From: a virus
Strand: one strand, 5' to 3'
IMG/VR virus record: IMGVR_UViG_3300001866_000011
Length of the DNA stretch: 64,000 nucleotides
The translations under genes were made by a program, and so were the position numbers. The notes under the pieces are model-generated. The model ran no database searches. It was not told where the DNA came from and saw nothing but the letters and a program-made list of their open reading frames with translations. The stretch's first letter is position 1, and each line of letters opens with the position of its first letter. Positions 11,772 through 55,412 of this stretch are shown piece after piece.

Positions 11772-11855
11772 TTTATATACAGATAGATCATATAAGTTAG
11801 TGCCGTAAAAATAGCAGAGAATTAGATCCTTTTTTCTTTTTCTTTGTTATGATGA
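11772..11855 (+). ncRNA. TATA-hairpin cassette A
   Basis: TTTATATAC at 11772, AGTGCCG at +27, stem ATAGCAGAGAA / TTCTTTGTTAT, TTTGTTATG at +71. Confidence 0.5.
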
Positions 11856-12122
11856 TTCGTTCGCCAAGGCTCACTTGTTTAACACTTTTACTTTAAAACA
11901 CAGAAATTTAATTATATTATTTAACTTATAGATATTTTCTTTAACTTATGTTTAATTTGTGCATTAGTTTCCACTTACATCTATAATAAATAATCAATAA
12001 CATTAGTGTTACTTTACTTAATATTCGTAATACTTGCTGTGACATAGTAAACAGAATTTAGTTTATCTATATATTAATTAGGATATTGTAAAGTATATAA
12101 ATAAAAAATAGAGATGTTTGTT

Positions 12123-12884
12123 TTATTCTGTAAGATTTACTTCTGTTGTTTTATTTAAAGAAGATGTAGTGTTATTTACAACTTCAAATGGGTTGCTAGA
12201 ATCTTTCCAGATATAATCAATACCAAGTTCATATCCAGTGCCATTCTTATCAAACTGACCATCATAGGTGCGCTCTGTCTTACGGAAGTCAATGTCGTTA
12301 CTTCCTGGAGTGAAACCCGCTTCTGTTGTTGCATATGTCTTGTAGGTAATTCCACCAGCATTTCCTTCAGCACTTATAGACGATGTCAGGTTCGCTTCAT
12401 TCATTACACCTGCTGATTTATATGCTCCTCCACCGCTTCCCATCTGTAGTGCTTCTGTTTCTACATACTGATAACTTGGAGTTGCATTTTCATTCAATGC
12501 TGCATACCATGACGCGCTACCATCAACATTTTTATTGTCTTCAAGAACATAACGATCTGATACAAGTGCAGCATCTCTAAATTCTCCTTCAACGGATGAA
12601 TCAAGTGTATTCTTATACTGTTGGTTACTGACTTCTTTTGCTTTAATAGATGCCATTCCAACAGTCAGAACTTTACGAGATGCTGATTGAATCTGATATG
12701 TCCCGTGACTTCCAATACCATCTGCAGTTACTTCAGACGTTCTAGTGCTTGTATGAATTCCAATACCACCTGCTCCCTGAACTTCAATAGATGAAGTTGC
12801 CATAGGTGTTGACATTACAGATGCAATTAGCATCATAACAAACATTAGAATAAAAAGATGTTTAATTTTAATCATATGTATCAA
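12123..12884 (-). CDS. Secreted/surface protein with signal peptide, Ser/Thr/Gly-rich, many N-X-S/T sequons
   Basis: KIKHLFILMFVMMLIASVMS signal peptide; sequons include NAT, NLT, NGT, NNT, NTT, NKT. Confidence 0.65.
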   Translation of the reverse strand: MIHMIKIKHLFILMFVMMLIASVMSTPMATSSIEVQGAGGIGIHTSTRTSEVTADGIGSHGTYQIQSASRKVLTVGMASIKAKEVSNQQYKNTLDSSVEGEFRDAALVSDRYVLEDNKNVDGSASWYAALNENATPSYQYVETEALQMGSGGGAYKSAGVMNEANLTSSISAEGNAGGITYKTYATTEAGFTPGSNDIDFRKTERTYDGQFDKNGTGYELGIDYIWKDSSNPFEVVNNTTSSLNKTTEVNLTE

Positions 12885-12898
12885 AAAACTCTCAAAAT

Positions 12899-13108
12899 TT
12901 ATTCGTTTTCTGTAAGTTTACAATCTCCATCTGGGTTGCTAGACGATGAAGATGAAGACTCGCCCTTACACATCATTTTACATTTGATAGCAACATTACG
13001 TGCTGCTTCTCGCACTCTACCGTAGAAACTCATACTAGGATTTGCAAGATCTTGTTTTAGTTCTTCACTTGCATCATCTGTAGCCATTTTTCTGTCCATG
13101 ATTGACAT
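12899..13108 (-). CDS. Hypothetical protein with poly-Ser tract
   Basis: Leaderless start about 25 nt below a TTTATATA box; 69 aa. Confidence 0.55.
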   Translation of the reverse strand: MSIMDRKMATDDASEELKQDLANPSMSFYGRVREAARNVAIKCKMMCKGESSSSSSSNPDGDCKLTENE

Positions 13109-13231
13109 GATGTAGTAATATACGCTTTAATTGTATATAAATGTAATAGGAGAGAAGAAGGATGGTAATGGTTATAGATCTATTATACCAATCACTATCT
13201 TTTTAAACATGTAAAACATATAGAATATAGC

Positions 13232-51944: not shown

Positions 51945-52355
51945 TTATTGAACATCTGCATAAATATAATACATTCCTCTTTGTGAAATAGGTTTGTTAT
52001 ATGTTCTAATTTTAAATTTAATATTAGTTCTTTGATAATATTTTACATAGTCTATTGCTTTATCTTGACTATCTACTGTTTTAACTAATTTATATGTTTT
52101 ATTTCCAAAGGTTGCTATCTTTGTTCCACCATGCTTAAAGTCTGTTCCAACATGATAAAACCCACATATTCTACACTTAAACACATTCATTGGCTTACCA
52201 AACTTTCTAGCAATTATGTATTTATTGGCATAAGATTTACTTAAAAATTTCTTTTTCCTTAAACATAAAGACCAGAGTTTATAATCATGTTCTAATATCC
52301 ATGTCAATGAATAAGATATGTTTTTTGATACTTTATTCATACAATTAATAGTCAA
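51945..52355 (-). CDS. Zinc-finger hypothetical protein
   Basis: CLRKKKFLSKSYA...VFKCRICGFYHVG. Confidence 0.5.
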   Translation of the reverse strand: MTINCMNKVSKNISYSLTWILEHDYKLWSLCLRKKKFLSKSYANKYIIARKFGKPMNVFKCRICGFYHVGTDFKHGGTKIATFGNKTYKLVKTVDSQDKAIDYVKYYQRTNIKFKIRTYNKPISQRGMYYIYADVQ

Positions 52356-53487
52356 TGATCCATCTTAATACTTTCTCCTCATTTCTTCTACTGTCCATAT
52401 TGGGAATTGTATTATCAATCTGTCTATACTAGTAACACTAAACTAATACTTCTTATGATCATATACCTTCATTTCCACTGTAGAACCATTAAGTTTATAT
52501 ACTAATAAAAACAATAAGTAAAACGCTGCGGGGAATATATACATACTTTACCCGCTGTGCGGGTGTTTGCCCAAATTCACAGTAATCCTTTTATTTTCAT
52601 TTCTTTCGTTATTCTATTAGATTTAAACTAATATTCATATTTTTAAGGCAGGCGCACCGTTATTTAACCCATAATTTAGACGTATTTAATGAGTGGTGAT
52701 ATGCGTGTTTACAGAGGGAGAAGATAGAAGGTAGAATGTGGATGTCAAAATAGTCAATATAATACATACAATTTATAAATAACCATATTCAATACGATAT
52801 TATTTTAACTATGCACTATTATTTACATATGTAAATTTTGATAGTATTAATATTTGTATAGTATAATATTTAAAAAGTTATAAATTTATGAAGATGATAA
52901 TAAAATAACCCAAATACTATAATTATACATAATCATACTACAATAGCGTCACCTTAAAAATAAAGAACAACCAACGTTTATATCTAATATAATCTATATT
53001 ACATGCGTATTTTATTTACGTTAACACTTATTTTTAATATGTAATTTGCATAGTAGTTAAAATATTATGTTCACCATTACCTATCATAAACACAAACTAT
53101 AGTAGATTCTATCAAAAATAGTATAATTATATGAGATGATAATACAAATGCGTCTCTATAAAAATAAACTATAATAGTAGTTAATTAATTAAAATAACCA
53201 ATATAAACGTATAAAATATTAACTATGGTGTTTTATTTTAATATGTAATTTCTAACATGACAGTTAAAATATGATAGTTGGTAAAATTACTTTTAATGGT
53301 GGTATAAAAATCTAAATATATTGTAATTATACAGATTCATACTATAAGTGTGTCGCCATAAATTAAAACAATATATGATATTTAATACAAGAAAAAATAA
53401 ATTTAATTGGATATTTTATTAACTATGTCATATAATTTTGATATGTAAATATGTTTATATAGTATGCTATCGATATTATAGATACAT

Positions 53488-54588
53488 ATGTTACCAAAGA
53501 TAATTGAGATTAAGTGTAATAATCCAACATGTAATAATTACATAAATGTAGATTATGAAGAATACAAAAGATACAATAAATTATTCTGTTGTAATAACTG
53601 TAGAAAATACACTTATAAACTTAAATTGGAGAAAAAGACAAAACACTGTATAAATAAATCATGTAACAAGAAATTTATTACATACGACAATCGCGAACAC
53701 TGTTGTGAACACTGTAAAACCCATAAATCGAAAATAACAAAACAAAACTATATTAAACAATGCATCAAATTGGGTCTAAAAAACAATATAGAACACAAAA
53801 ATTATGATCCTGATTATAAAGTAAGGAATAATCCAATATCACGAACAAAATTATATAAAAAATATAATGGTACTCTATTAAAAAATATTGGACCACTCTA
53901 CAAACCTTATTTAACTCAAAATGTATTGAATTATATAAACCATACTATATTTAAATTTAAAATTAAATCTAAAGAAGAAATTAAAGGTCTGCTCCAACAA
54001 GAAATAGATAGAGTAATTGCAAAAGAAACTTGGAATGATGCTCATGCAGATGTATATAGACCAGAAAAGATAATAGCAGAAAAAGATGATTATAGACTCC
54101 TATTTATAAAATGTAATAATCCAAAATGTAACAATCATATCCCCATTAACTTATATGAATTGATGCATTATAACAAATTATTCTGTTCAAATAAATGTAA
54201 AATGTCTTTTTATAATCACAATAAAAGACTAAATATAAAACCAATAAGATATAAAAAATCATGCAAACGGTGTAAAAGAACATTCTATACATACGATAAT
54301 ACAAGAAACTATTGTAATTCACACTGTGAATTCAGATTCAATAAACTAACCGCAATATCATACAAACAATTAATCAGATGTATACAAGTAAGACATAGTA
54401 ATCTAAATACTAGACAACCATTTGGAGCATATACAATAAGTGAAGAATTTATAACTAACTTTCTAACTAAAGAAAAAGAAGAACATCAACACATGATAGA
54501 ACTATATAACTCATATAATGATGCAGATAAATTAACATTTGTTAAATCACTTGGTATAAACAAGATATCAAACTTTAAAATAGATTAA
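53488..54588 (+). CDS. Internally duplicated Cys-rich (TRASH/MYM-like zinc finger) protein
   Basis: IKCNNPTCNNYI...YNKLFCCNNC...C..C.KKFITYDN..HC and IKCNNPKCNNHI...YNKLFCSNKC...CKRCKRTFYTYDN..YC. Confidence 0.7.
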   Translation: MLPKIIEIKCNNPTCNNYINVDYEEYKRYNKLFCCNNCRKYTYKLKLEKKTKHCINKSCNKKFITYDNREHCCEHCKTHKSKITKQNYIKQCIKLGLKNNIEHKNYDPDYKVRNNPISRTKLYKKYNGTLLKNIGPLYKPYLTQNVLNYINHTIFKFKIKSKEEIKGLLQQEIDRVIAKETWNDAHADVYRPEKIIAEKDDYRLLFIKCNNPKCNNHIPINLYELMHYNKLFCSNKCKMSFYNHNKRLNIKPIRYKKSCKRCKRTFYTYDNTRNYCNSHCEFRFNKLTAISYKQLIRCIQVRHSNLNTRQPFGAYTISEEFITNFLTKEKEEHQHMIELYNSYNDADKLTFVKSLGINKISNFKID

Positions 54589-54894
54589 TCAACACATAGT
54601 ATTTATTGACGAAAATATTTATTATCTATTAAAACAAATAAGATGTTGTATGGCAGATGAAATTTTAACAGGAATCGTATTGATCATTATTGCAATTGTA
54701 ATGTTGATTCTAGGACCAGTTCTTACGATTATTATTCTAAACTTCCTACTATCACAGATGTTTGTATCATACATTCCACTAGCAATTAACTTTTGGAACT
54801 GGCTAGCCTTCTTCGTGTTTACATTCTGTGGTTTTATATCATCGGTAGGAAGAAAGTAAATCCCACAACAAAACTCTTTTCTCTATCTTTCTTT

Positions 54895-55412
54895 TATATC
54901 ACGTCGCCACTAACAAAAATACAGTATTACAATTCTAAACAAAGGTAACACTCCGCCATTAAAAGATAACCTCGTGTGAAAACAGTCAGATTCCCTAAAA
55001 CTCATAACAAAGAAAAAGAAGAAAAGAAATCGCCACAAATCTTTCCTTGTAATAGATCTAATTCTCTGTTTCTGCTGTGCCAAAATAATATTGTATTTAA
55101 TAGTATATAAATGTTATGAAGAGAAGAGGAAGATGATAGTAGATCCAGGTTAATATAGTAATAATAGATCTATTAAAATTACAGTATCACGTCGCCATTA
55201 AAATTACAGTAAGTTATGCTTTTAAGAAAAGAAATAATAGATCTATTAAAATTACAGTAGCCATTAAAGATAATACTTTTCTATCCCGTCGCCACTAATA
55301 TTACAATATCCTATAAAATTTGCTGGTTAATGTAAAAATTTGCAAGGTAATGTAAAATAATAAAATTTTAACCCTTTATCTAATGCGGATTCAAATTAAG
55401 CGGATTCAAATA
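54895..55412 (+). repeat. Cluster of short direct repeats
   Basis: ATAATAGATCTATTAAAATTACAGTA x2 (about 55161, 55234); CGTCGCCA(C/T) x3 (about 54903, 55190, 55288); G(G/T)TAATGTAAAA x2; GCGGATTCAAAT x2. Confidence 0.85.
55000..55111 (-). ncRNA. TATA-hairpin cassette E (longer variant)
   Basis: TTTATATAC (minus strand, from 55111), GGCACAG start, stem ATTACAAGGAAAGA / TTTTTCTTTGTTAT, then GAG; TTTGTTATG at +100. Confidence 0.45.

Follow-up and report, generated by a model that had tools for sequence, protein, structure and literature searches.

Promoter-hairpin cassettes dispersed through a tailed virus with archaeal-type signals form a candidate family of small-RNA genes

The stretch of viral DNA analyzed here (the window, 64,000 nucleotides) is the minus strand of positions 41860-105859 in the 127,255-bp IMG/VR virus record IMGVR_UViG_3300001866_000011. 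Five dispersed cassettes, each with a TATA box followed by a hairpin, occur in the window, and an earlier note on this DNA had proposed that they form a family of independently transcribed small RNAs (sRNAs). The five prove to be members of a larger sequence family, which has a fixed promoter geometry, a covarying and strand-specific hairpin, a U-tract, and conserved genomic positions, and which lacks coding potential. As the best explanation we propose, with moderate confidence, that each cassette is an autonomous archaeal-type transcription unit, i.e. a gene for a predicted short hairpin RNA. The cassettes are well supported as a sequence family with a conserved structure; the transcript is predicted.

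All five sites were found at the coordinates given in the earlier note and with the architecture described there. The TATA-type sequence TTTATATAC begins at 11772(+), 30194(+), 32609(-), and 55111(-), and the copy at 48674(+) carries a degenerate TTATAGATAC in its place. In each copy, a purine-rich arm is paired with a pyrimidine-rich arm ending in TTTGTTATG; the arm pairs that had been quoted fold as claimed, and the compact copies reach a free energy of -12 to -16 kcal/mol. The distance from the TATA box to TTGTTATG is 71 nt in three copies and 100 nt in one, as reported, and has to be corrected from 74 to 75 nt in the remaining copy.

These five copies make up less than half of the family in the 127-kb genome, in which 11 distinct copies and one duplicate in a terminal repeat were detected. 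The motif TTTGTTATGRG (at most one mismatch) occurs 13 times in the genome vs 5.05 ± 2.18 times in shuffled sequences, and none of 100 shuffles reached 13. A covariance-model search of the full genome and of relatives, as the earlier note had suggested, was run with a model (R1) built from ten hairpins alone, without promoter columns. In the genome of the window's virus (G000), it recovered exactly the known copies (E = 1e-12 to 5e-5) and gave no other match. In three related IMG/VR viruses of 135-143 kb, there were 12 (G001), 16 (G002), and 9 (G003) matches. Ten, 14, and nine copies, respectively, were analyzed; left out were two matches on the mirror strand in G002 and, in G001, three without a confirmable cassette promoter. 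All in all, ~10-16 scattered copies are present per genome in this virus and in at least three to seven relatives. All statistics on 44 copies given below cover the four genomes G000-G003. R1 found no match in a more distant relative, G004, but nine on four viral contigs binned in a 'Saccharibacteria' metagenome-assembled genome (MAG).

Relatives were identified through a tape-measure-like protein of 1842 amino acids (aa) and alignments of it, with homologues on contigs from NCBI, JGI, Logan, and IMG/VR; a single-protein search with PolB found none. Three of the related contigs (L195, L196, and L197) sit in MAGs labeled Saccharibacteria, Syntrophaceae, and Methanospirillum. Likely, these are mis-binned viral contigs and not evidence of a host, and R1 gave no match in 141 archaeal genomes sampled from the class of the Methanospirillum MAG. 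Fixed DNA patterns do not transfer between viruses, because the promoter variants are lineage-specific. When scanned over IMG/VR, the pattern TTATATAC..ATCATA yielded at least 113 single matches, which were judged to be chance, and the pattern TATA..TTTGTTATGRG yielded 58, all coding or chance on inspection; a G002-type pattern mostly returned G002 itself, and a G003-type pattern was too unspecific. No match to Rfam 15 was obtained at gathering score in the whole window, and permissive thresholds applied to six 3-kb cassette loci gave only one chance-level match to a long non-coding RNA (E = 0.61).

Nearly every R1 match, weak ones included, has a TATA box that begins 26 nt ahead of a conserved initiator, of which each virus has its own form (TAGTGCC in G000, AGTGC in G001, ATGTGCC in G002, and ATGATGC in G003). 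The arrangement, TTTAWAWA 26 nt before a TAGTG, AGTGC, ATGTGC, or ATGATGC anchor, is that of an archaeal promoter with TATA box and B recognition element (BRE), and the spacing between TATA box and initiator is fixed to the nucleotide. The protein genes of these viruses have this TATA motif, too, at 28-37 nt upstream of the ATG; the geometry is therefore taken to be the one in use, and the start is predicted at the T|G step of the initiator. Within genomes, the 25 nt of spacer and initiator have a pairwise identity of 0.56-0.75, compared with 0.39-0.53 for the 5′ arm of the hairpin and 0.28-0.35 for the background further upstream. Since the spacer DNA is as conserved as the RNA or more, we infer that the copies are co-regulated via a lineage-specific site between TATA box and start, and that one sequence-specific factor would switch them on together.

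In the predicted RNA hairpin, the 5′ arm is rich in purines and the 3′ arm in U and C, and ~18% of the pairs are G-U. An alignment fitted to no model (MAFFT/RNAalifold, 26 copies from ten sources) contains a helix of 12 pairs, eight of which show two-sided changes; at column pair 16/42, for example, AU occurs 13 times, GC nine times, and GU four times, and no pair is broken. In this comparison, 94.2% of the cells are paired, vs 86.4 ± 1.0% after shuffling of the partners (0 of 500 shuffles reached the observed value), and 38 doubly changed cells stand against 12.2 in the control. When partners were slid by 1-3 columns, 64-78% of the cells were paired. Compensatory changes were hence observed above both the composition and the register control, and a model-based alignment of 48 sequences gave the same covariation picture. 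In every one of the 44 copies, folding is stronger on the promoter strand (mean -12.8 vs -6.2 kcal/mol, p = 8e-9), a strand specificity that is due to the ~18% of G-U pairs. Many of the hairpins are centered on a GATC palindrome. Of the earlier proposal of an independent sRNA family, the promoter-hairpin units with RNA-type pairing on the promoter strand have thus held up, and they are further borne out by a TATA-to-initiator geometry that is independent of the hairpin model and by the lack of a conserved open reading frame (ORF); their transcription is predicted.

A T run marks the 3′ end of the unit, as expected by sequence for an oligo-T terminator. In 33 of the 44 copies, a run of at least four T is found at most 25 nt past the hairpin, vs 31% of random intergenic sites, with a median offset of +3 nt vs +63 nt. 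The typical sequence after the hairpin is (U)GAGUUUU, and the predicted RNA would be 50-90 nt long. Past the U-tract, the tails show no relationship, even where two copies occupy orthologous positions. Shared tail fragments pointed out in the earlier note do exist; they are weak, however, the best being a 15-nt match of 30.2 bits, which falls within the range of shuffled tails (95th percentile 30.2 bits, maximum 36.2). Complementarity of the tails to the virus genomes was searched with blastn-short: the best matches were no better than those of shuffled tails in G001-G003, and the matches in excess of shuffles in G000 are the repeat copies themselves. Since conservation covers the hairpin with the sequence right beside it but stops short of the tails, the product would most likely act through its structure.

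Several other features were sought around the hairpin. The idea that the 5′ leader pairs with the beginning of the tail in a closing helix was rejected, as leaders gave no stronger duplexes with their own tails than in mismatched combinations (permutation p = 0.58). A leader peptide or small ORF was ruled out, too. The ATG in GUUAUGAG opens only 2-64 codons, its frames are broken by indels, and it is absent in most G002 copies; consequently, it is not a start codon, and neither start nor frame is conserved. C/D box sRNAs (C box RUGAUGA, D box CUGA) were likewise rejected by inspection, which showed AUGAUGA after the hairpin in only one copy (11772+) and no consistent CUGA; most copies read UGAGUUUU at the place concerned. 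The sequence GAGUUUUUGG after the hairpin resembles an Sm site, and many copies have GAGUUUU(U)GG-type sequence there. Finally, an ordinary terminator of opposite-strand genes was ruled out, because on the reverse strand the fold is weak and a T-tract is missing.

Each of the 44 copies lies between genes. Upstream and downstream genes are both in the orientation of the cassette for 19 copies and both in the opposite orientation for 16; for five copies only the upstream gene and for three only the downstream gene has the same orientation (one copy without a call). A convergent downstream gene is thus present for 21 of 44 copies, and the earlier statement that most copies are antisense or convergent to their neighbors holds in the window (four out of five). 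The adjoining genes have their own TATA box ~30 nt before the ATG. Lineage-specific genes are not enriched beside the cassettes: 39% of the flanking genes are without homologues vs 50% genome-wide.

Positions and orientation of the cassettes recur among viruses with no more than 25-56% identity between their proteins. Homologous cassettes precede the tape-measure gene in contigs L185-L188 (L189 does not extend far enough upstream) and in five of six contigs found later, i.e. all but L194, which is G004. The convergent pair at genome positions 17429(+) and 17617(-) is also present before the tape-measure gene in G001, G002, and L185-L188, and one member of it was found in G003, L196, and L197; the gene itself keeps its own TATA box ~30 nt before the ATG. 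Further shared positions are (i) before the ribonucleotide reductase gene (G000 and G003); (ii) between the orthologues of G000_156 and G000_157 (G000 and G001); (iii) divergent from the 138-aa gene G000_96 (G000 and G001); (iv) before the orthologues of G000_160 (G001-G003); and (v) just after the polymerase gene (G002 and G003).

The region before the tape-measure gene has two additional features. At locus L009 (genome coordinates 17740-17970, minus strand), just upstream of this gene, the ORF before the cassette pair runs on in a second frame, in which a WYNGGGAHKIF motif common to the relatives is kept; the arrangement recalls the frameshifted G/GT tail chaperones of tailed phages. In L185, several T-arm-like GGTTCGAATCC motifs lie on the minus strand at ~2600-3250, between the cassette pair and the tape-measure gene. 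They suggest tRNA-like genes, although ARAGORN calls none; no tRNAs were found in the window or in relatives.

Within the window, cassette A spans 11772..11889 on the plus strand (genome copy -94016; covariance model E = 4.6e-10). Its TATA box occupies 11772-11779, the start is predicted at ~11800 (TTAG|TGCC), the stem lies at 11811-11850, and the first U4 at 11886-11889, so that the predicted RNA is ~90 nt long. Cassette A comes after two co-oriented small genes and converges on a 253-aa ORF at 12123-12884(-). Cassette B spans 30194..30310 on the plus strand (genome copy -75594; E = 3.1e-11), with the TATA box at 30194-30201, a predicted start at ~30222, the stem at 30231-30271, and the first U4 at 30307-30310. 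Both neighboring genes run antisense to it, and the same divergent arrangement is seen by the orthologous 138-aa gene in G001. Contigs of two wastewater runs from one sample (labeled RNA-Seq, probably DNA) match the window well only at 30100-30378, around cassette B. The matches at 30100-30239 and 30278-30378 comprise ~93% identity over 140 nt spanning the promoter and 5′ arm and 100% over 101 nt of the tail, followed by complete divergence beyond 30378. This pattern points to a related virus in which the cassette B region would be unusually conserved.

Cassette C lies on the minus strand at 32505..32609 (genome copy +73323; E = 9.9e-10). Its TATA box (32609-32602) is located 13 nt past the upstream stop codon, the predicted start is at ~32581, the stem with a GAUC-centered loop at 32566-32531, and the first U4 at 32508-32505; this copy is co-oriented with its flanking genes. 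Cassette D (48674..48762, plus strand; genome copy -57111; E = 1.4e-12) has the degenerate TATA box (TTATAGAT) at 48674-48681, a predicted start at ~48702 (TTGTGCGCC), the stem at 48712-48755, and GAGUUUUGGG with U4 at 48759-48762. Its predicted RNA is ~61 nt long, and it is antisense to both flanking genes. Cassette E is a long variant on the minus strand (54997..55111; genome copy +50850; E = 1.5e-8), in which an extended hairpin with an inner helix (~55070-55006) follows the TATA box (55111-55104) and the predicted start at ~55083 (TTGGCAC); GAGUUUUAGG with U4 is found at 55000-54997. It is antisense to both neighbors and lies inside a 1.3-kb non-coding, origin-like region.

The main rival to small-RNA genes is cis-acting punctuation, a possible but unlikely reading according to which the unit works as DNA and nascent RNA: hairpin and U-tracts would end upstream transcription, and the promoter would restart or oppose it, thereby insulating adjacent units or temporal classes. 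It accords with the unconserved tails, with the terminator-like combination of hairpin and U-tract, and with a co-oriented upstream gene in 24 of 43 copies, whose stop codon the TATA box often follows by only 30-60 nt. Repeated composite promoter/terminator motifs are moreover used by large tailed phages, namely the PeSL (promoter-early stem-loop) cassettes of T4-like phages (PMC2839356, PMC4122927), of which the units would on this reading be an archaeal analogue. As with PeSLs, there are dozens of ~100-bp promoter plus stem-loop motifs in intergenic regions of large tailed-virus genomes, with a family conserved per genome. The two differ, however, in several respects. PeSL promoters are of the bacterial sigma-70 kind, whereas the cassettes have an archaeal TATA box. 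In PeSLs, a GC-rich stem-loop around or upstream of the promoter serves to terminate the genes before it; the cassette hairpin, in contrast, comes after the start, is under the promoter of its own unit, and is built of purine and pyrimidine arms that include G-U pairs. Every PeSL is directed towards a downstream ORF with a Shine-Dalgarno site, whereas about half of the cassettes are antisense or convergent, and PeSLs flank lineage-specific genes in variable regions, whereas the positions here are conserved without any such enrichment. Punctuation is thus weakened by the near-random orientation, by an order of promoter before hairpin in which the unit ends its own transcript, and by the missing association with variable genes. 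In addition, the reverse strand of the 16 copies antisense to both neighbors offers a weak hairpin and no T-tract, and downstream genes have their own TATA box. Plain oligo-T is thought to be sufficient for archaeal termination; oligo-T alone would not explain selection for a covarying stem of 12-16 bp.

Guide RNAs, attenuators, and DNA-level elements, like the leader-peptide and C/D-box readings treated above, fit worse than small-RNA genes. As an attenuator or structured 5′ leader, the transcript would normally stop at hairpin and U-tract and read into the downstream gene or antisense only conditionally or by a viral antiterminator. Such a role might suit the 23 copies with a co-oriented downstream gene, the conserved position before the tape-measure and ribonucleotide reductase genes, and the 11 of 44 copies without a nearby U-tract (in G000, the one preceding the tape-measure gene lacks any T4 run for 150 nt). 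Yet nearly half of the copies are directed away from or against any gene, downstream genes come with correctly spaced TATA boxes of their own, the distance to the next start codon is very variable (67-797 nt), and no alternative (antiterminator) fold was seen; attenuation, already mentioned as an alternative in the earlier note, stays a minor and improbable rival. Slightly more improbable is an element acting as DNA, be it a cruciform or single-strand hairpin, a protein site, a replication priming site, a recombination hot spot, or a small mobile repeat, next to which the TATA-like sequence would be incidental. The origin-like region does contain one copy and the terminal repeat another, many hairpins are GATC-centered, and a purine-rich RNA on pyrimidine DNA would favor R-loops; two genome copies identical over ~105 nt suggest recent copying or gene conversion, which evidently occurs. 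Against this stand the nucleotide-exact spacing from TATA box to initiator and the G-U (in DNA, G-T) pairs, which make the fold specific, in 44 of 44 copies, to the strand downstream of the promoter. Terminal inverted repeats or target duplications were not seen by eye in the copies inspected, a check that was not systematic, and the retention of positions and orientation among distant relatives argues against mobility, so that the remnant of a mobile element considered earlier is unlikely.

The least probable reading is that of guide RNAs, in which a constant 5′ hairpin handle and a variable 3′ guide would steer a nuclease or other effector to sequences of the host or of a competitor. In architecture, the cassettes recall type V CRISPR RNAs (crRNAs), with a promoter for each unit, and type V crRNAs and TnpB omega-RNAs likewise have a conserved hairpin beside variable sequence. 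In a domain search of five viruses, TnpB was found in G003, with a weak sub-threshold match in G002; PF07282 was absent from G000, G001, and G004 (IscB and Nop domains were not searched for). The window's virus thus has no TnpB-type effector, and no array was found. In most copies the U-tract follows within a few nt of the hairpin, which leaves little room for a guide, and the tails, unrelated at orthologous positions, have no virus-genome matches beyond shuffles. The constant scaffold with variable guide put forward in the earlier note is not supported by these data.

Under the small-RNA gene reading, the BRE/TATA box would set the host RNA polymerase to start ~28 nt downstream at the T|G(C) initiator. 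A leader of 4-30 nt would then be followed by an RNA hairpin of 12-16 bp with several G-U pairs, and at the conserved (U)GAG and the U4-5 tract after the hairpin the archaeal polymerase would be expected to end, releasing an RNA of ~50-90 nt. The virus would keep 11 such genes and its relatives 9-16, at partly conserved intergenic sites and in either orientation. The most likely product is an abundant protein-binding or decoy RNA, for which a U-/pyrimidine-binding host protein, e.g. an Sm-like one, is a candidate partner. Some points weigh against this reading. Composition explains much of the pairing, though not all of it (purine against U, 84-86% even when shuffled). The 3′ arm itself holds T5 runs, so that transcription might end before the hairpin is complete, and the copies without a nearby U-tract may read on into adjoining genes. 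The sameness of the promoter spacer within genomes could result from gene conversion instead of a shared regulator. In the domain search of the five viruses, no TFIIB domain was found, and neither was an LSM domain, so that the search for Sm-like proteins suggested earlier produced no viral partner. Transcription, RNA ends, co-regulation, and a trans-acting role are all inferred from sequence.

The cassettes would belong with virus-encoded small structured RNAs or with repeated promoter/stem-loop cassettes. So far, knowledge of such RNAs in archaeal viruses amounts to a few single-copy antisense small RNAs, which have been mapped in SSV1 and end at oligo-T (bioRxiv 10.64898/2026.06.17.732947). 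The cassettes resemble these RNAs and the oop RNA of phage lambda in that small independent non-coding transcripts, often antisense or convergent, are predicted; SSV1 RNAs and oop RNA are, however, single-copy and act by antisense overlap, whereas here a family of 10-16 members is found in which the potentially overlapping part is unconserved. Lambda oop RNA is a short regulatory RNA of a virus that runs from promoter to terminator. Adenovirus VA RNAs and the EBERs of Epstein-Barr virus (EBV) are short, highly structured, U-ended RNAs that have dedicated promoters and bind host proteins. Possibly, though this more specific proposal is quite unlikely, the cassettes are an archaeal counterpart of such VA RNA- or EBER-type viral RNAs: a battery of co-regulated decoy-RNA genes, whose 10-16 identical-class promoters would flood the archaeal cell early with U-rich hairpin RNA and titrate a host protein (an Sm-like protein, a 3′-end processing or decay factor, or a defense sensor), with a promoter-proximal operator co-evolving with a viral regulator. 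VA RNAs and EBERs are eukaryotic polymerase III products present in one or two copies, and the likeness is one of mechanism only.

Judged from its genes, the virus is tailed, with replication and transcription signals of archaeal type. The window contains genes for a family-B DNA polymerase, a PD-(D/E)XK nuclease, a RuvB-like ATPase, and glycosyltransferases; a terminase-like protein, a ribonucleotide reductase, a PKD/DUF2341 fiber-like protein, and a PCNA-like clamp are also encoded by the virus. The look-alikes of the PCNA-like ORF (window 350-1060) are mostly viral. By predicted structure, its nearest neighbors are archaeal PCNA clusters, among which Thermoplasmatota is the commonest phylum, and one lower-ranked feature-based cluster is from Methanobacteriota. 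The GC content of the window is ~28-30%. Alternative genetic codes were ruled out as the cause of the many short ORFs, as the standard code fits the window best. Metagenomes from groundwater contain DNA of the virus, and bioreactor and wastewater samples match it in part; no RNA library is on record as containing it.

The 1.3-kb non-coding stretch around cassette E (window ~54860-56170) is located at a switch in gene orientation and at the minimum of the cumulative GC skew. It looks like a replication origin because of four ATAGATCTAT palindromes and 3-4 copies of TAGTGGCGACG(T/G)GATA there. Genome-wide, the 10-bp palindrome ATAGATCTAT occurs 15 times vs 0.6 expected, 12 of the 15 being intergenic; in the window, it is found at 13183, 16393, 26766, 29197, 48196, 48606, 55173, 55246, 55500, 55862, 58285, 61771, and 63046. 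It is a repeated signal separate from the cassettes, though many cassette hairpins are GATC-centered as well. The 8-mer AGTGTTAC follows four to five cassettes at 40-160 nt downstream. Of its nine occurrences in the genome, six are intergenic; it was located at genome positions 17511, 17532, 50908, and 119052 (+) and 93855 (-), with window positions 54952 (-) and 12005 (+). Outside the window, the 122-bp terminal repeat of the record (genome 1-122 and 127134-127255) is nearly coextensive with one cassette copy, which is identical over ~105 nt to an internal copy at genome 109839-109950. The terminal repeat may mark a true, promoter-bearing end or an overlap produced in assembly at a repeated sequence.

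Hardly any work has been done on the non-coding RNAs of archaeal viruses. In a whole clade of tailed archaeal viruses (~130 kb), sampled from groundwater, wastewater, and digesters, a family of covarying hairpins is maintained in multiple copies, each with a highly conserved promoter, and the hairpin model can serve as a marker for contigs of this clade that were wrongly placed in MAGs of bacteria and archaea. In the literature searched, no description of a dispersed small-RNA family of this kind in archaeal viruses was found; if transcribed as predicted, the cassettes would be the first such gene family. They would then also provide a natural set of promoters and terminators for studies of archaeal initiation, promoter-proximal termination, and co-regulation, and the hairpin could be used as bait for the host or viral protein that binds it.

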